Source: Thermoplasmata archaeon (GTDB lineage Archaea > Thermoplasmatota > Thermoplasmata > Lutacidiplasmatales > UBA184). From it: 64,000 nucleotides of DNA. Shown one piece after another: positions 4,857 to 49,198 of the stretch. How positions within the stretch are numbered: position 1 is the stretch's first letter; every line of letters starts with the position of its first letter. The translations under genes and the position numbers were made by a program. Location: positions 21,398 through 85,397 of the forward strand of contig JAJYXQ010000005.1 in NCBI GenBank assembly GCA_021796385.1, given 5' to 3'. The notes below the pieces were generated by a model. That model ran no database searches, was not told where the DNA came from, and saw nothing but the letters and a program-made list of their open reading frames with translations.

Positions 4857-5795
4857 ATGAAGGCACTCATCACGGGGGGCGGCGGATTCATCGGACAGAT
4901 GTTGGCGAAACGGCTGGTCGAGCGCGGGGACGATGTCACTTTGGTGGACATCGCTTTTCCCAAACCGGGTCCCGGTTCCATCCTGGGCAAGGTGAAGACG
5001 AGGACCGGGAACCTCGCGATATTCACGGATGTGCTTGATGCTGTGCAAGCGACCCGACCCGAGAGCATCTTCCACCTAGGGGCCCTCCTTTCGGCGAGCG
5101 CTGAGGCCAGCCCGATAGCGGCCTACCACGTCAACTTTGACGGCTCGTTCTTCGTGCTCGAAGCGGCCCGGCTATTCGGGGTCAAGCGGGTCGTCTACAC
5201 AAGCTCGATCGCCTCCTTCGGACCCGGTGTCCCGGACCCGGTACCCAACGAGTGGGACCAGAAGCCATCGACGATCTACGGGGTCTCCAAAGTGTTCACG
5301 GAGCGGCTCGGCGAGTACTACCACCGGGAGCTCGGTATAGGATTCCGCGCGGTCCGACTTCCCTCCATCCTCGGTGCGGGCCGGGGTGGTGGGGGAGCGA
5401 GCGCGTACACCACGTTCATCATCGACAAGCCAGCGCACGGCCAACCGGTGGAGGTCTGGTGCGAGGAGCGCAGTCGCATCCCTCTCCTGTACGTCGATGA
5501 TGCGGTGCAGGGTCTTGTCTCGATCCATGATGCGGCAGACTCGAAGCTCAGCCGATGCTCGTACAACCTCCAGGGATTCTCTCCCACGGCCCGGGAAATG
5601 GCGGATGCGGTCCGAGCCAAGATCCCAGGAGCCAAGATCAACTTTGCCCCCGATCCCAAGATGCAGGCGATCGTCGACTCCTGGCCACGGGCCTTGGATG
5701 ACACTCCCGCCCGCAACGATTGGGGGTGGAAGCCCACGATCGACCTCAACGGCACGATCGAACGATACCTTTCCGCCGCCCGCTCCGGGTCCTAG
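4857..5795 (+). CDS. NAD-dependent epimerase/dehydratase (extended SDR; possibly nucleotide-sugar epimerase or L-threonine 3-dehydrogenase-like)
   Basis: MKALITGGGGFIGQMLAKRL is the Rossmann GxxGxxG motif. The catalytic YxxxK lies in STIYGVSKVF. Length is 312 aa. Confidence 0.8.
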   Translation: MKALITGGGGFIGQMLAKRLVERGDDVTLVDIAFPKPGPGSILGKVKTRTGNLAIFTDVLDAVQATRPESIFHLGALLSASAEASPIAAYHVNFDGSFFVLEAARLFGVKRVVYTSSIASFGPGVPDPVPNEWDQKPSTIYGVSKVFTERLGEYYHRELGIGFRAVRLPSILGAGRGGGGASAYTTFIIDKPAHGQPVEVWCEERSRIPLLYVDDAVQGLVSIHDAADSKLSRCSYNLQGFSPTAREMADAVRAKIPGAKINFAPDPKMQAIVDSWPRALDDTPARNDWGWKPTIDLNGTIERYLSAARSGS

Positions 5796-5864
5796 GCGAC
5801 CTACGGAAAGCGAACTACGGAGACCACGACACCCTTCGCTTGATCTAAGTCCGGGTCTGCCGCA

Positions 5865-7097
5865 GTGAAGGTCCTGCGAATCCACAGCTGGGACGGCCCG
5901 GTGGAAGGGGGGGGCGAGGACTATGTGCGAACCGTTTCCCAGATGCTTGAAGCGCAGGGCCATCCCCAGCGCATCGTGGCGATCACCTCCCGACCGACCG
6001 ATTTTTTCGGGTCTCAAGGGGTCAATTTCGTCGTTCCGGGGGCGGGTTTCCGGAGGGGTCTCGGTGATTCGATGGGTACCGCGGGGCTCCTGCCACTGCT
6101 CCGGAGGGCGGCCCAGGATTTCGAGCCGGACATCATCCACCTTCACCACTTCGATGCGGGTTTCTCCTCGATTGCGCACTTCCTGCGCGAGGTCCGCCAG
6201 CCGATCCTCTTCACAGCACACGACGCGGAACTGGTCTGTCCGATATCGACGCTCGTGCTGCCGGATGGCCGGATCTGCGAAGGAGGGGTCCGGATCCGTT
6301 GCGGACTGACCGGGTGCAATGTGGGCCGGGGGCTCCCGCTGAACCTATGGCAGACCCGGGTGTTCGATACGATGGTGGCGCCCAGGGTGCGCGGATACCT
6401 CTGCCCGAGCCGGACCCTGCGGGACTATCTGGATAGCAACGGGTACCGTCCTGCCCTCCATCTGCCGTCCTTTGCCATGATACCCCCCGAGGTCCGCCGA
6501 GCGGGAGTGTCGGGTCCTGAGCTAAATGTGCCGCGCATCGGCTTCCTGGGTCGAATAGAGGAGAACAAGGGTATCCGCTTCCTCTTGGAGGCATTCGCCC
6601 GAGTAAAGCAGGCCGAGCCGAAAGCGCTGCTCGACCTGGCGGGGGAAGGCACTGCAACCGCTCAGTTCCAAGCGATGGCCGAGGCCCTCGACATAGCCGA
6701 CAGCATCACTTGGTCGGGGTGGCGAACGGGGGTCGACAAGGAGGTGTGGTTCCGGAAGCAGCGCCTTGTGGTCTTCCCCTCACTTCCGTTCGAGAACTTC
6801 CCACTGGTCGCGCTCGAAGCCCTGGTGCGGGGCATTCCGGTGGTTGCGACAGATGCCGGTGGGGCGAAGGACATCGTACGCCCCGGAAGCACCGGGTGGC
6901 TGGTCCCGCCCTCCAACCCGTCTGCGCTCTCGGATGCGATCCTGGAGGCACTGCGCCAGCCCAAGGTGGCGGAGGCAAGGGCGCAAGCTGGGCGAAGCAT
7001 GGTGCTTACGGAGTTCACGCCCGAAGTACATGTCGAACGCCTGCGAAAGATCTATGAGAAGGTCTTGGCGGGAGAGCCGTTGGTCCCCAAGGTCTAG
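5865..7097 (+). CDS. family 4 glycosyltransferase (GT4, glycosyl transferase group 1)
   Basis: 410 aa. C-terminal FENFPLVALEALVRGIPVVATDAGGAKDIV is the GT-B EX7E region. The N-terminus MKVLRIHSWDGPVEGGGEDYV is typical of GT4. Confidence 0.85.
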   Translation: MKVLRIHSWDGPVEGGGEDYVRTVSQMLEAQGHPQRIVAITSRPTDFFGSQGVNFVVPGAGFRRGLGDSMGTAGLLPLLRRAAQDFEPDIIHLHHFDAGFSSIAHFLREVRQPILFTAHDAELVCPISTLVLPDGRICEGGVRIRCGLTGCNVGRGLPLNLWQTRVFDTMVAPRVRGYLCPSRTLRDYLDSNGYRPALHLPSFAMIPPEVRRAGVSGPELNVPRIGFLGRIEENKGIRFLLEAFARVKQAEPKALLDLAGEGTATAQFQAMAEALDIADSITWSGWRTGVDKEVWFRKQRLVVFPSLPFENFPLVALEALVRGIPVVATDAGGAKDIVRPGSTGWLVPPSNPSALSDAILEALRQPKVAEARAQAGRSMVLTEFTPEVHVERLRKIYEKVLAGEPLVPKV

Positions 7098-35447: not shown

Positions 35448-36710
35448 TTAAACGGAAGGTGAACTCTTGCCAGTCCCTTGAAGGGCCAGGTGCCGGAAGT
35501 GCCGATTGGTCCACCAGGTACCAAAACATGCTACCGCTACTATCCCCGAGTAGGCGATGAGGATAAACGGGGGAAAAGCCTCGAAGAGCACTCCGCCAAG
35601 GGCCGGGCCGGCGAGACCCGGTAGACGTGTGGCGACACTGAAGGATCCGATGGTCGTTGCCCTTCGTTCCCGTCCGACGGATGCACCGATGTAGACCGCT
35701 GGGGAGACGGTATCGAACATGCCGATGGCTCCCCAAACCTCGTAGAGCCCTCCCGCCAACAATACGTTGCGCACAAAGACCATCACTGTGACGGCGACCG
35801 CTTCCCCGGCAAAGCTTAGGGTGGCCGTCCGAAGGGCGCCCAACCGGTCCACAAGTTTACCCGAGACAAAAGCAAGGACTCCCATCATCCCGAGCTCGAT
35901 GGAGGCGAGCAGACCGTAGAAATTGACTGGGGCCCCTAAGTACCGGGTGAAGTACAACGGGAGAAAGGGGCCATACATCTGTTGGCCAAAACTGACCAAC
36001 CCGTATACTCCGATGATCGGCAGGATCGGCCCAAGTATGGTCCATCCTCCCGGCCGTTGTTTCTTGTGGCCATCAATCAGAGGCCGCATCGGGCTTTCCG
36101 GCGACGGCTCTCGGAGGTACCACCATTTAATGACCAGTGCTATGCCGAGGAAAAGGGTGGCGATCAAGAAGACCCAAGCCCAACCGTATCCTTGTCCTAT
36201 CAATGAACCGATAAAGGGCATCGGGACCGATACCAGCGAAGGAAGCACGTAGGGGGAAGACATCGCAATCCCTCGTTGCGATTCCGATACTGACTCGAAG
36301 AGTATGGCCCGGGTGGCGCCAGTACCAAAGGTGCCCCCTATGCTGAAGAGGCCAAAACCTAGAAGGATCGAAGGCAGCGTGGGTAGGTTGGCAACCAATC
36401 CAATGAGGATGAGGGCGGTACCACCCAGCATACTTCCTGAGGCAAGGAGGATCACATCCTTGCGCTTGCCTCGATCGGCCAAGATTCCCCCGAGCGGGGC
36501 TCCCACCATACCAAGCCCGAGACCAACGGCAACAACCAGGGCGATGGTGAGGATACCTATCCCCTCGGAGAACAAGAAAATGCTGAAAAGGGGCCACCAG
36601 AGGGAGGTGGCTCCGGTGTGAAATATTCCGGAGAACGCAATGGCCCGAGGGTTCCCAGGCAGGGTGATCGAAACGAACAGCTTCCCGAAACGGGATCTAT
36701 CTTCGCCCAT
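35448..36710 (-). CDS. MFS transporter
   Basis: 420 aa with 12 predicted TM helices. ADRGKRKD-type loop between TM2 and TM3. Confidence 0.75.
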   Translation of the reverse strand: MGEDRSRFGKLFVSITLPGNPRAIAFSGIFHTGATSLWWPLFSIFLFSEGIGILTIALVVAVGLGLGMVGAPLGGILADRGKRKDVILLASGSMLGGTALILIGLVANLPTLPSILLGFGLFSIGGTFGTGATRAILFESVSESQRGIAMSSPYVLPSLVSVPMPFIGSLIGQGYGWAWVFLIATLFLGIALVIKWWYLREPSPESPMRPLIDGHKKQRPGGWTILGPILPIIGVYGLVSFGQQMYGPFLPLYFTRYLGAPVNFYGLLASIELGMMGVLAFVSGKLVDRLGALRTATLSFAGEAVAVTVMVFVRNVLLAGGLYEVWGAIGMFDTVSPAVYIGASVGRERRATTIGSFSVATRLPGLAGPALGGVLFEAFPPFILIAYSGIVAVACFGTWWTNRHFRHLALQGTGKSSPSV

Positions 36711-37513: not shown

Positions 37514-37574
37514 TAATACATCATGACTCCATATAACCGTAGCGTAGATGCATTTCTGACGTATGTCGGATTAG

Positions 37575-37582
37575 TTATATAA
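37575..37582 (+). promoter_or_regulatory. TATA box (TTATATAA) of the small-ORF/radical-SAM operon; may also serve the divergent proteasome-like gene
   Basis: A strong archaeal TATA consensus, ~34 bp upstream of the GTG at 37616. GGAGGTG (37603-37609) lies between them as a Shine-Dalgarno. Confidence 0.5.
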
Positions 37583-37615
37583 GCGATATCCCTGATTCAC
37601 ACGGAGGTGAACAAG

Positions 37616-37747
37616 GTGGACATTCAAAAGGAACTGGAGCTAGAGGTTGCGCGTCTGTTGGAACGGCTCGAAGTCTCTGCGGCCCCCCGGCCGGAGAGCT
37701 TTGAACGCCTGTCAATCCCCGGCAGCCCAGAGATCATGTGGGGGTAG
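37616..37747 (+). CDS. unannotated 43-aa acidic small ORF; candidate RiPP-type precursor peptide (amphipathic N-terminal half, C-terminal ...SIPGSPEIMWG)
   Basis: GTG start 6 nt after GGAGGTG, TAG stop at 37745-37747. Translation is VDIQKELELEVARLLERLEVSAAPRPESFERLSIPGSPEIMWG. It lies directly upstream of a radical-SAM/SPASM gene and is separated from it by a hairpin. Too short to appear in the ORF track. Confidence 0.35.
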   Translation: MDIQKELELEVARLLERLEVSAAPRPESFERLSIPGSPEIMWG

Positions 37748-37757
37748 ACCCCACCGC

Positions 37758-37791
37758 CAGGGACAGGGCTTCCTCTGAGGTTCTGTCCCTG
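37758..37791 (+). terminator. perfect 9-bp inverted repeat (cagggacag-N16-ctgtccctg) between the small ORF and the radical SAM gene; putative attenuator or partial terminator
   Basis: Read directly from the sequence. It is followed by a short T-containing stretch (ccattctt). Such a hairpin in RiPP operons typically raises the precursor:enzyme transcript ratio. Confidence 0.4.
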
Positions 37792-37811
37792 AACCATTCT
37801 TGTAGGACCCT

Positions 37812-38966
37812 ATGGAGGAAATAAGTATAGATCGGTGGGGTCCAGTCCTCGAGAACCGGAAACTCATCAAACTCATCTGGCATGTCACCAACCGGTGCAA
37901 CTTCGCTTGCTCTTACTGTTACGTTGTGGTGAACCGGTACAAGACAGATCTTCCAACCGAGCAGATGTTCGACATTGTCGATCAGATCAACCGGTCGGGG
38001 ATCCAAGCGCTGAACTTGACTGGCGGCGAGGTCTTCACCCGGGAAGACATCCTGCCCATCCTTGAGCGCATTCGCCCCGAGATCCGAGTAGGCATAGCCA
38101 CCAATGGATCGCGGATCACCCCCGAGATCGCCCGGGCGATGGCGGAGCGGGACGCCTTTGCCTCCATCACGATCGACAGCCTGGACGATGCCGTGAACCA
38201 ATCAACCCGCGTCGGGAGCGACACCCCTCGACTCTTGGCGAACGTGAAGCTTCTCATCGACTCTGGGGTACGGACCGGGCTCAGCGTCGTAGCGACTCGG
38301 ACCAACGCAGGTCATATCGCCCAGATGGCGGAGCACTTCTACCGCATGGGTGCGGTCAGTTGGAAGGTGGGTGCCTTGCGCAACACCGGAGAGGCACTGG
38401 AGTCTCACTCTTTCTCCTCATTGGCGCTCAGTTACGAGGAGGAAGAGCGGCTGTTGAACACTCTCTACGATTTGCGACTGAAATATCGTCCCTTGGGTTT
38501 CGAAGTGCGAGCGAGTTTCACCCCCCACCCAGTGTACTTCGAGAAGTTTGCATCAGAGATAGGAGGCAAGAGCCCATGCCTTTGCGGGTACGCCCGGGCG
38601 GTCCTGAAGCACGATGGGGGACTCGTGCCTTGTGACGCCATCAAGTACCCCGATGACTACGTCAAAGCGGGGTTTGCCATCCCCAACATTCTCCAGGGAC
38701 CCGAGCTTCAAGAGGCTTTCTACGGCTCCTCTCTTTTCCGGCTCTGGACGATGGCCACGTCGGGAGCGGTCCCCGTCGGATGCAACAACTGCTCCTATTT
38801 CGATGCCTGTCGGGGCTTCTGCCGCGGCCAAAGCATGGTACGCACGGGCACAGTCACCGGTCTTCTTGGCCGCTCGACGAGCTGTGCCAGGAACGACAAG
38901 ATCCGCGCCACGGGTGTCCGACCCATTCGAGTGTCCACAGGTACGAAGGTGTCGTCCATAGCATGA
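37812..38966 (+). CDS. radical SAM enzyme with C-terminal SPASM domain (peptide/protein-modifying maturase family)
   Basis: WHVTNRCNFACSYCY is CxxxCxxC. The C-terminal CLCGYARAVLKHDGGLVPCD...GCNNCSYFDACRGFCRG is the 7-Cys SPASM auxiliary-cluster pattern. No N-terminal RRE/PqqD domain is evident. Confidence 0.85.
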   Translation: MEEISIDRWGPVLENRKLIKLIWHVTNRCNFACSYCYVVVNRYKTDLPTEQMFDIVDQINRSGIQALNLTGGEVFTREDILPILERIRPEIRVGIATNGSRITPEIARAMAERDAFASITIDSLDDAVNQSTRVGSDTPRLLANVKLLIDSGVRTGLSVVATRTNAGHIAQMAEHFYRMGAVSWKVGALRNTGEALESHSFSSLALSYEEEERLLNTLYDLRLKYRPLGFEVRASFTPHPVYFEKFASEIGGKSPCLCGYARAVLKHDGGLVPCDAIKYPDDYVKAGFAIPNILQGPELQEAFYGSSLFRLWTMATSGAVPVGCNNCSYFDACRGFCRGQSMVRTGTVTGLLGRSTSCARNDKIRATGVRPIRVSTGTKVSSIA

Positions 38967-39643
38967 GCACTGCAGCCACCGTAAACGCCGGGCACGTCAT
39001 CTGCAAGTTGAGCGTGCCATTGCCGGCAGGAGTGTCGTACCTCCAAACGGTATCTGTTGCCCATCCGTTGGCGATCTTCGAGATGCAGGCCATCATTCCG
39101 ACGCAAGATGGGCGGATCTGGACCAGCTTACGGATCAGCTCTCCGACCGATGTCGAGAGATTGCTGCAGGACATCGAGAGCTCCCCCGATGTTCAAGGAG
39201 TCGATGTGATCAGCCGGGACTTGGAAGGCGCCGCATTGCATGTCGTTTCGGAACTATGCCAACCCAACGTATTCCTAAAAGCGATTGGGCTCGGGCTGAT
39301 CCCGGAGTTCCCAATTTTCGTCAAGGCAGGTCACTTCACACCGATCGTGGCGGCCAAGGAAGAGAGCGTGATGAAACTCTATGATCAATTCCGGAGCGAC
39401 TTCCCGGGAACGACCATCCTTTCGATCCGGAAGGAGACCACGGAAGGAATGAAGCATCTCCTGACCCCACACCAGTTGGAGATCTATCGCACGGCTCTAG
39501 CCTCGGGATACTGGGATGTACCGCGCCGTATCTCTATCACGATGCTTGCGAGCGTGCTCGGGGTCTCGAAATCCACGCTGTCAAAGACCTTGGCCATTGT
39601 GGAAAGCAAGCTCATGCACAATGTTCCTTCAACCGGATTCTGA
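38963..39643 (+). CDS. HTH_10 (Bat/DmsR-type) transcriptional regulator
   Basis: Start overlaps the rSAM stop (ATGA). The C-terminal LTPHQLEIYRTALASGYWDVPRRISITMLASVLGVSKSTLSKTLAIVESKL is the PF04967-type HTH. The track ORF (38780) over-extends into the rSAM gene. Confidence 0.6.
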   Translation: MSTAATVNAGHVICKLSVPLPAGVSYLQTVSVAHPLAIFEMQAIIPTQDGRIWTSLRISSPTDVERLLQDIESSPDVQGVDVISRDLEGAALHVVSELCQPNVFLKAIGLGLIPEFPIFVKAGHFTPIVAAKEESVMKLYDQFRSDFPGTTILSIRKETTEGMKHLLTPHQLEIYRTALASGYWDVPRRISITMLASVLGVSKSTLSKTLAIVESKLMHNVPSTGF

Positions 39644-46989: not shown

Positions 46990-47074
46990 GCTGGCGTAGC
47001 CAAGTCCGGCCAACGGCAACGGACTCAAGATCCGTTCTCGCAGGAGTTCCCAGGTTCAAATCCTGGCGCCAGCA
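46990..47074 (+). tRNA. tRNA-Leu (anticodon CAA), class II with a 14-nt variable arm
   Basis: Hand-folded. Acceptor GCTGGCG/CGCCAGC, anticodon arm ACGGA-CTCAAGA-TCCGT (U33, anticodon CAA), variable arm TCTCGCAGGAGTTC, T-arm CCAGG-TTCAAAT-CCTGG, discriminator A. No CCA is encoded. The anticodon arm is identical to haloarchaeal tRNA-Leu(CAA). Confidence 0.8.
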
Positions 47075-49125: not shown

Positions 49126-49198
49126 AGCCGAGGGAGGGAGTTGAACCCCCGGAAAGCAGATCTGCAGTCTGCCGCATTAGCCGTTCTGCCACCTCGGC
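49126..49198 (-). tRNA. tRNA-Cys (anticodon GCA)
   Basis: Hand-folded from the reverse complement. Acceptor GCCGAGG/CCTCGGC (7/7 bp), D-arm GCAG-AACGGCTA-ATGC, anticodon arm GCAGA-CTGCAGA-TCTGC (U33, GCA at 34-36), 5-nt variable loop, T-arm GGGGG-TTCAACT-CCCTC, discriminator U. 73 nt with canonical numbering throughout. Confidence 0.85.

Follow-up and report, generated by a model that had tools for sequence, protein, structure and literature searches.

A candidate gene cluster for a ribosomally made, radical SAM-modified peptide in uncultured Thermoplasmata archaea

The peptide and radical SAM locus

A stretch of 64,000 nt from a Thermoplasmata archaeon (assembly GCA_021796385.1, contig JAJYXQ010000005.1, positions 21,398 to 85,397 of the forward strand; hereafter the window, in whose coordinates all positions are given) contains a short peptide gene directly upstream of a gene for a candidate radical S-adenosylmethionine (SAM)/SPASM peptide maturase. 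Judging from sequence conservation, the locus is probably a gene cluster for a radical SAM-modified member of the class of peptides that ribosomes synthesize and that are modified after translation (RiPPs), made by uncultured Thermoplasmata archaea. Together with a putative exporter of the major facilitator superfamily (MFS), the candidate precursor and maturase form a trio that is conserved as a unit while its surroundings change. An earlier note on this DNA, made from the letters alone, had described a RiPP-like cassette here. All of the sequence features that it listed are present where it placed them (Table 1), including the TATA box, the GGAGGTG Shine-Dalgarno sequence 6 nt ahead of a GTG-initiated open reading frame (ORF) and the HTH_10 gene coupled through ATGA to the stop of the radical SAM gene (38963 versus 38966).

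The peptide gene recurs wherever the enzyme gene is found. Twelve distinct loci make up one clade of the family (clade 1) and three make up a second (clade 2); 18 distinct peptides were compared in all. When the clade 1 contigs were fetched and translated, an intact, co-oriented ORF of 43-50 codons was found upstream of the enzyme gene in 12 of 12 distinct loci, ending 16-92 nt before it. The corresponding ORF in clade 2 encodes about 40 residues and abuts the enzyme gene. Thus, an intact short ORF precedes every orthologous SPASM gene found (12 + 3 distinct loci), so the conservation test set by the earlier note gave a positive result. More generally, the precursor gene is adjacent to and co-oriented with the maturase gene in 18 of 18 distinct loci from the two clades, and the gap between the two genes is 16-92 nt in every locus where they do not overlap. 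Compared pairwise over their last 32 codons, the ORFs give dN/dS values of 0.06 to 0.48, which shows that purifying selection acts on the encoded protein. The single ORF in the window would not be significant alone, because a six-frame translation of the window contains 10 occurrences of the bare motif [ST]PxxxW-x(0-3)-stop; by sequence comparison, its significance lies in conservation at the same position in 18 of 18 distinct related loci together with dN/dS below 0.5.

The 18 distinct peptides all have P26, P38 and W42 (window numbering), and either Ser or Thr at position 37. The resulting signature is [S/T]-P-x-x-x-W followed by 1-3 variable residues and the stop codon, behind an acidic helical leader with a PxP element. 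The helical segment of the leader reads LLxRL in clade 1 and ELEGLERE in clade 2. The window peptide has the leader ..ELELEVARLLERLEVSAAPRP.. and the core ..IPGSPEIMWG, examples of clade 1 C-termini are ..FERFMIPSSPEIDWG, ..MSRMAVPSSPEFSWQ, ..LGNLSIPSSPEYMWG, ..LDHVNVPSSPDYTWGP, ..LEHLGMPSSPDRGWG, ..LGHLAGKSSPGWGWA and ..LEHLAGKCSPGIGWV, and the clade 2 endings are ..PHRLSPGPMWGIT, ..PSKLSPGPMWGI and ..PSKLSPGPMWKQ. What follows the Trp varies (G, Q, GP, A, V, T, GIT, GI or KQ) and is mostly a single residue. Each locus has one copy of the peptide, with a strictly conserved rather than hypervariable core. The C-terminal motif resembling ...EIMWG whose conservation the earlier note proposed to check exists in this altered form: the C-terminus is indeed kept, but the residues that are kept are SPxxxW, and the residue at position 39 varies among E, D and G.

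The ORF caller begins the window peptide at an earlier GTG (37607), whereas the ATG-start homologs in loci L007 and L009 favor the start at 37616. Read-through of the peptide stop into the radical SAM gene was considered and rejected, as the two genes are in different frames (37616 in frame 2, 37812 in frame 0) and position 37803 begins an in-frame TAG. A search of 5.8 billion proteins with a profile of the peptides returned only 11 clusters, of 43-66 residues, labeled at most 'hypothetical protein'. None of the precursor families in NCBIfam or Pfam matched the peptides at E<=10, apart from one chance-level match of a single member to the NCBIfam 'putative leader peptide' (E 0.16).

Table 1. 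Features of the locus, in window coordinates
Feature	Position	Strand	Evidence
MFS transporter, 420 aa, putative exporter, conserved core	35448..36710	-	Pfam MFS_1 E 7e-32
Ribbon-helix-helix (RHH) N-terminus fused to divergent proteasome alpha-subunit-like domain, 243 aa	36782..37513	-	Pfam Proteasome E 3.5e-17 and Proteasome_A_N
TATA box of the peptide operon, TTATATAA	37575..37582	+	Sequence read
Shine-Dalgarno sequence GGAGGTG, 6 nt ahead of GTG 37616	37603..37609	+	Sequence read, locus alignment
Precursor peptide gene, 43 aa and TAG, (M)DIQKELELEVARLLERLEVSAAPRPESFERLSIPGSPEIMWG*	37616..37747	+	Homologous ORFs, dN/dS
RNA hairpin between peptide and radical SAM genes, 15 bp, 4-nt loop	37758..37791	+	RNAfold, covariation
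Pyrimidine-rich motif GAACCATTCTT after the hairpin, then in-frame TAG 37803-37805 before the radical SAM ATG	37791..37805	+	
Candidate radical SAM/SPASM peptide maturase, 384 aa	37812..38966	+	Pfam Radical_SAM PF04055 E 1.3e-23
Protein of 226 aa resembling HTH_10 transcription factors, gene coupled in translation to the radical SAM gene	38963..39643	+	Pfam HTH_10 E 1.4e-15

The radical SAM/SPASM enzyme

The enzyme carries the SAM-cluster motif C29xxxC33xxC36, which is invariant in the family, and a complete SPASM pattern (C256xC258-x10-G269-x4-C274 ... C324xxC327x5C333x3C337 ... C358). Eight C-terminal cysteines (C256, C258, C274, C324, C327, C333, C337 and C358) are invariant in eight family members and in 17 sequences including outgroups. 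The earlier note was therefore right about the CxxxCxxC motif and the complete SPASM pattern, though not about the count, which it gave as seven. In the anaerobic sulfatase-maturating enzyme (anSME), both auxiliary clusters are fully ligated by cysteine; by analogy, the eight cysteines here would allow the same. The Pfam SPASM model PF13186 gave no match at E<=0.01 for the window protein, and none is on record for proteins P0001-P0009, while the clade 2 homologs scored 22.8 and 21.3 bits against a cut-off of 21.5. With the radical SAM core starting near residue 20 and only some 25 residues left after the final SPASM cysteine, the protein has no room for a fused RiPP recognition element (RRE).

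None of the curated NCBIfam families is reached by the enzyme. The best match, aligned over the full length and far below its cut-off, is the mycofactocin maturase MftC (TIGR03962; 85 bits against a cut-off of 265), and the other best matches also fall far short: NirJ2 with 84 bits (500), AhbD with 81 (500), PqqE with 54, more exactly 53.7 (381), and DynA with 43 (450). A sequence search of the PDB returned SkfB, anSME and PqqE. An AlphaFold2 model built from 17 sequences (mean pLDDT 82.9, pTM 0.83) was compared with the PDB by Foldseek, which placed SuiB, a maturase of the streptide type that crosslinks Lys and Trp, first (E 4e-15, TM-score 0.65-0.68), followed at small margins by SkfB, anSME, PqqE and CteB, all with a probability of 1.00 and TM-scores of 0.6-0.7. 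The predicted structure is that of a SPASM peptide- or protein-modifying fold and indicates no specific chemistry.

Distribution of the family

The enzyme family is very small and, among named genomes, is found by sequence searches only in metagenome-assembled genomes (MAGs) of Thermoplasmata. A search of 5.8 billion proteins with the enzyme gave nine clusters (E <= 1e-56), after which there is a jump to generic SPASM proteins at E ~1e-17. An exhaustive hidden Markov model search of 1.84 billion representatives returned one full-length representative and one fragment of 283 residues; unclassified SPASM proteins come next, with scores that fall gradually from 242 bits. Among GTDB contigs with one genome per species, the family occurs in seven MAGs, six of which are labeled Thermoplasmata archaeon. 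The seventh (JAKBKR01), 98% identical to the window, is labeled only 'bacterium'. Its record (JAKBKR010000037.1, locus L017, titled 'MAG: bacterium isolate DX1.bin10') has archaeal gene content and archaeal relatives (Thermoplasmata), and appears to be mislabeled. Clade 2 was recovered from a scan of JGI metagenomes (loci L080, L081-85 and L086), and its enzymes are 33-35% identical to that of the window (E ~1e-58).

In one long-read MAG (contig_26482, loci L013 and L022) two genes of the block are split, that for the radical SAM enzyme (283 aa) and the RHH-proteasome-like one (152 + 77 aa), and the ORF of the peptide is whole; the splits reflect either decay of the cluster or long-read indel errors.

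No similar peptides were found upstream of the next-nearest bacterial radical SAM relatives (L024-L041). Upstream of three bacterial SPASM relatives (from Verrucomicrobiota, Opitutus and a deltaproteobacterium) lie ORFs rich in runs of Val, Gly, Ala and Glu, such as AVEVGVVAVVGAVEVVEE (L024, ~5767-6063; L025, 5851-6063; L026, 5772-5960). These may represent a different type of precursor or a mere effect of composition.

Gene neighborhood

The neighbors of the radical SAM gene in the window, as identified with Pfam, are the MFS gene, the proteasome-like gene, the HTH_10 gene and a citrate synthase gene. Clade 1 loci share a block comprising the MFS and RHH-proteasome-alpha-like genes, both on the minus strand, followed by the peptide gene, the radical SAM gene and usually the HTH_10 gene. 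Beyond this block the flanks differ from locus to locus: one side has, for example, a TPR protein, a dUTPase, a 2-hydroxyacid dehydrogenase or SIR2, and the other citrate synthase, ChrB, a signal-peptide peptidase or ferredoxin. The divergent MFS gene, which the earlier note had overlooked, is conserved with the peptide and the enzyme in both clades and occupies the same position in every family locus whose contig extends that far. In clade 2 it is divergently adjacent to the peptide gene, and its product is 40% identical to the window MFS protein (E 9e-73); the transporter is thus more conserved between the clades than the enzyme (40% versus 33-35% identity). From these comparisons the conserved core is the MFS, peptide and radical SAM/SPASM genes, and the rest is lineage-specific. 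By analogy with known clusters, such a core accompanied by lineage-specific regulators and tailoring-type enzymes is the usual anatomy of a RiPP cluster.

The HTH_10 gene, counted by the earlier note as part of the cassette, turned out to lie outside the conserved core. Full-length orthologs are located downstream in seven of the 10 clade 1 loci checked, and the gene is absent downstream in L009, L012 and L020 and in clade 2. Besides HTH_10, the protein has a sub-threshold BAT match in Pfam, and its structure predicted from the single sequence has a pLDDT of 35. Other genes appear in particular lineages. A class I SAM-dependent methyltransferase gene lies between the radical SAM and HTH_10 genes in L004 (7178-8143) and L005, overlapping the HTH_10 start, and a gene for an APH-family phosphotransferase overlaps the 3' end of the radical SAM gene in two distinct clade 2 members (L080, 3217-4314; L081, 5100-5882). 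The latter could serve to phosphorylate the invariant Ser/Thr as a tailoring step, or else for self-protection. Accessory genes that overlap or abut the maturase gene are typical of RiPP clusters.

The RHH-proteasome-like gene adjoins in all clade 1 loci and is absent from clade 2. With 93 bits, its product falls short of the cut-off of 219 set for the archaeal alpha-subunit model in NCBIfam and is for this reason regarded as a paralog rather than the housekeeping subunit. The protein is of the non-catalytic alpha type, retains the alpha signature YSPDGR, and has a ParD/CopG-like N-terminus (a weak ParD/RHH match at residues 10-38). This family numbers at least 48 clusters, in Thermoplasmata and Thermoplasmatota, and a distant member (P0048) has no radical SAM, peptide or adjacent MFS neighbors. 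Because the gene occurs without the cluster in that case and is absent from clade 2, it was dropped as an obligatory member. Docking of an HbYX-like peptide tail on the proteasome-alpha-like protein was also weighed, since a penultimate aromatic residue precedes the variable last residue. It was discarded because the peptide of L001 ends in WGP and those of clade 2 in WGIT, WGI or WKQ, and because clade 2 has no proteasome-like gene.

Expression signals and the intergenic hairpin

The intergenic regions of clade 1 are collinear, with a TATA-like box for the divergent gene first and the TATA box of the peptide gene about 35 nt further on. In nine of 11 aligned clade 1 loci a box of the TTAAATA/TTATATA type occupies the corresponding position 20-22 nt upstream of GGAGGTG (variants TTATATAA, TTAAATA or TATTATAA; weak in L001 and L004), and GGAGGTG itself (GGGGGTG in L011) precedes the start codon by 6-8 nt in all 11. 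Archaeal transcription starts about 25 nt downstream of the TATA box, so the transcript is predicted to start at or just before the Shine-Dalgarno sequence; this would agree with the earlier estimate of about 37605. Between the back-to-back TATA boxes, at 37514-37615 of the window and in the aligned regions of 10 other loci, lie recurring TACGT-containing elements, such as GCGTAGATGCATTTCTGACGTATG in the window, which could be operator sites for the RHH or the HTH_10 protein.

The hairpin between the peptide and radical SAM genes is present as the earlier note had claimed, though with a different structure: in the RNAfold prediction the stem has 15 bp in place of 9 bp, and the loop 4 nt in place of 16 nt (-25.9 kcal/mol, z = -2.24). 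The hairpin was recognized in six of the 12 clade 1 loci, where pairing extends to 92.9% of the cells and compensatory changes to 10 of the 14 pairs, values reached by none of 500 shuffles; sliding the partner by 1-3 columns lowers pairing to 40-57%. These six sequences were selected for showing the hairpin, a caveat on the covariation. Between the window and its 98% identical relative L016 there is one compensatory change, C-G to T-A, at the base of the stem. In five of the six hairpin loci the distance from the stop codon to the stem is 10-11 nt, and the hairpin encloses an ATG in L001, L004 and L006, which in L001 and L004 is the radical SAM start. Loci without a hairpin at that place are L009, L011, L012, L013 and L020-23, and a scan of the window with Rfam gave no match at the hairpin. 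The covarying hairpin is compatible with an attenuator role.

A second element, AACC(C/A)TT(T/C)C, follows the hairpin or precedes the radical SAM core in all clade 1 loci; it was checked downstream of the peptide stop in L001, L004, L006, L007, L009, L011, L012 and L020-23, and is repeated two to three times in L020-23. It is mostly translated as xPF(P) at the N-terminus of the enzyme. In the window, however, the TAG at 37803 severs it from the ATG, and in L004 it is read in another frame, which suggests some constraint at the nucleotide level; the constraint may act on the protein, the RNA or both. The element, also flagged by a pattern scan, could be a weak T-rich termination tail.

Proposed function and chemistry

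If the locus is a RiPP cluster, maturation might proceed as follows. The helical LLxRL...PxP leader would dock directly on the enzyme, a proposal made because neither an RRE domain nor an RRE protein is present; in SuiB the leader was reportedly bound in the catalytic barrel, not on the RRE, according to the 2017 structure paper. In the invariant Ser/Thr-Pro segment, an sp3 carbon would lose a hydrogen to the 5'-deoxyadenosyl radical, and the carbon radical so formed would attack the indole of the invariant Trp 4-5 residues downstream, giving a five- or six-residue macrocycle and a mass change of -2 Da, with the two auxiliary clusters, predicted to be fully ligated by cysteine, accepting the electron. 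The product might then be decorated by lineage-specific tailoring genes (the methyltransferase in L004, the APH-type kinase in clade 2) and exported by the MFS pump. Context further suggests that the HTH_10 protein may regulate the operon and that the hairpin and the weak T-rich tail may keep the enzyme and HTH_10 genes expressed at a lower level than the precursor, setting their ratio.

Any sequence-specific chemistry must involve S/T37, P38 and W42, because these are the sole invariant residues of the core. A crosslink from the Trp to the Ser/Pro segment is accordingly the best guess, and a tentative one. Other chemistries fit the peptides less well. The thioether of sactipeptides and ranthipeptides was rejected because no cysteine is conserved across the 18 peptides (it is only sporadic, in L009 and L021), in agreement with the earlier preference for a C-C or C-N bond. 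The PqqA-like Glu-aromatic pair (E39/W42) that the earlier note had offered as a possibility is not supported by the variable position 39. MftC-like chemistry on the C-terminal carboxylate is unlikely given the 1-3 variable residues after the Trp, a triceptide with the Trp first in its motif is excluded by the single residue that follows the Trp in most members, and the S-x-P-x-R target of the anSME type does not fit a conserved unit of S/T-P with no Arg.

Several observations weigh against the RiPP interpretation or parts of it. Neither an RRE or PqqD-like gene nor a recognizable protease that might serve as leader peptidase is encoded in the family loci, and the crosslink partners are guessed from residue invariance. 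Profile scores put the non-peptide SPASM enzymes NirJ2 and AhbD no further from the enzyme than MftC, all below cut-off; clustering with such enzymes was the outcome that the earlier note had named as damaging, and the scores are equidistant in this respect. The nearest outgroup proteins (P0080 and others) belong to no curated family, so the phylogeny leaves the class of substrate undecided. In the structural ranking SuiB leads anSME and PqqE by a narrow margin (E 4e-15 versus 1e-13). About half of the loci lack the hairpin or have it displaced, some of them with a different stem further downstream, and all loci come from metagenomic assemblies. With regard to the first of these points, an RRE is common in RiPP clusters, though not obligatory.

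Alternative explanations

The enzyme's resemblance to MftC raises the question of whether the peptide is instead a scaffold for an intracellular cofactor or signal, similar to pyrroloquinoline quinone (PQQ) or mycofactocin, in which the radical SAM enzyme makes a first Trp crosslink, housekeeping peptidases trim the product and nothing is exported. MftC is the best curated match, aligned over its full length; the enzyme has about 380 residues and no fused RRE, as do MftC and PqqE; as in MftA, a short acidic peptide carries its key aromatic residue at the very C-terminal end; and the single peptide per locus has a conserved rather than hypervariable core. The scores for MftC and PqqE nevertheless lie far under their cut-offs, no MftB/PqqD chaperone, peptidase or redox partner genes occur in the cluster, the residues after the Trp disfavor chemistry on the C-terminal carboxylate, and a dedicated, co-conserved MFS transporter fits export better. 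A cofactor scaffold is therefore improbable. Another reading is that adjacency does not denote substrate and enzyme, so that the radical SAM protein would act on another protein or a small molecule (a tetrapyrrole, as do AhbD and NirJ, or the proteasome-alpha-like neighbor) and the ORF would encode an unrelated small protein. NirJ2 and AhbD score as high as MftC, the protein-acting anSME is among the top structural matches, and the RHH-proteasome-like gene adjoins in all clade 1 loci. Against this, the heme-family scores are far below their cut-offs of 500, the cluster has no other heme-pathway genes, the proteasome-like gene is absent from clade 2 while peptide and enzyme stay together (and is also found without the enzyme), and peptide and enzyme genes remain close and co-oriented in every locus, down to 33% enzyme identity. 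This is the least probable of the alternatives considered.

The position of the hairpin suggests another role for the small ORF, as an arrest peptide like TnaC or SecM. Its conserved C-terminal residues would halt the ribosome at the stop codon, and the stalled ribosome would remodel the hairpin and thereby control translation of the radical SAM gene, the real substrate of the enzyme lying elsewhere. The conserved stretch of about 25 residues ending in ..SPxxxW-x-stop approximates the length of the exit tunnel and has the Trp and Pro typical of arrest peptides; the hairpin follows the stop at a nearly constant distance and in three loci encloses an ATG; and the very weak match of one member is to a 'putative leader peptide' family. 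However, the peptide is kept in clade 1 loci that lack a hairpin at that place and in clade 2, where its stop abuts the radical SAM gene. Its own promoter and consensus Shine-Dalgarno sequence suit high-level expression, and the co-conservation of the MFS and tailoring-enzyme genes has no role in a purely regulatory model. Furthermore, arrest peptides are not known from archaea. An arrest peptide is thus highly improbable, though slightly less so than mere adjacency, and a RiPP precursor remains the probable identity of the ORF.

Comparison with known systems

The streptide and suicyclin systems (StrA-StrB and SuiA-SuiB, KxxxW) share with this locus a short precursor with a Trp near its C-terminus, encoded directly upstream of the radical SAM/SPASM gene. 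The i to i+4 spacing of Lys and Trp there corresponds to P38 and W42 here, and SuiB is the best structural match of the enzyme model. The systems differ in that the residue four before the Trp is an invariant Pro, not Lys; the N-terminal RRE domain of about 100 residues of StrB and SuiB is absent, with an identity to SuiB of 15-16%; and TIGR04080 is outside the top 25 NCBIfam matches of the enzyme. The host here is archaeal and the putative exporter an MFS protein, in contrast to the ABC transporter/protease of streptide clusters.

Among the cofactor systems, mycofactocin (MftA/MftB/MftC) provides the best curated match, an RRE-less radical SAM/SPASM enzyme of similar size and a short acidic precursor with an essential aromatic residue at its C-terminal end. 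It differs in the low score (85 versus 265 bits), in the ..GVY C-terminus not seen here and in mftB, D, E and F, none of which is nearby. PQQ biosynthesis (PqqA/PqqD/PqqE) also has a small precursor just upstream of the radical SAM/SPASM gene, and PqqE is among both the sequence and the structure matches. In this case too the score (TIGR02109; 54 versus 381 bits) is low, the Glu three residues before the aromatic is not conserved, and pqqB, C and D are missing from the vicinity.

Triceptides and darobactin/dynobactin resemble the proposed product in that a radical SAM/SPASM enzyme joins an aromatic ring to an sp3 carbon in a residue nearby. DynA, the dynobactin maturase, is however only a weak match (43 bits against a cut-off of 450) with an unrelated precursor motif, and the aromatic-X-X motif of triceptides with the Trp first is impossible where mostly one residue follows the Trp. 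The anSME enzymes have SPASM domains with eight C-terminal cysteines, are a top structural match and act on a Ser or Cys beside a Pro; their target (C/S)-x-(P/A)-x-R is nevertheless absent here, TIGR03942 is not among the top matches and no sulfatase gene lies nearby. The heme enzymes AhbD and NirJ are set apart by 81-84 bits against a cut-off of 500 and by the lack of ahb or nir genes in the surroundings.

Novelty and significance

Thousands of RiPP clusters have been predicted in archaea, of which only the haloarchaeal lanthipeptides have been characterized (PMC12144867). The same 2025 survey of 11,644 archaeal genomes lists radical SAM-dependent RiPP clusters only as antiSMASH categories (PMC12144867), and a 2026 preprint describes subtilosin-like clusters in Thermococcales, a different family. 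Full-text literature searches on radical SAM RiPPs of archaea and Thermoplasmata found no description of the peptide or the enzyme. The statement in the earlier note that no archaeal RiPP with such a precursor was described has thus held up, as literature and curated-family searches gave none.

The putative cluster represents, on the basis of its sequences, a new family within the well-known class of radical SAM/SPASM-modified peptides. Its general design is familiar, and many uncharacterized pairs of radical SAM enzymes and peptides exist. A bolder view, which is speculative, is that the locus combines an undescribed Trp to Ser/Thr-Pro crosslink with RRE-free recognition and would become the first characterized radical SAM RiPP class native to archaea, the peptide perhaps being a signal sensed by the HTH_10 protein.

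The locus offers a clean minimal archaeal test case with one peptide, one enzyme and one transporter. The [S/T]-P-x3-W core is sharply defined by 18 natural variants, and the two diverged clades serve as natural controls. An enzyme that lacks an RRE could show how a leader is recognized without one. If the crosslink is new, the family would provide an additional enzyme and type of macrocycle for peptide engineering and a first view of peptide chemistry in the Thermoplasmata of acid-mine and soil environments. If instead the product is an ordinary -2 Da Trp cyclophane, it would be one more family in a well-known class.

Other features of the window

The G+C content of the window is 61%. Two tRNA genes, at 46990-47074 on the plus strand and 49126-49198 on the minus strand, are the sole Rfam matches at the gathering threshold in the 64 kb.

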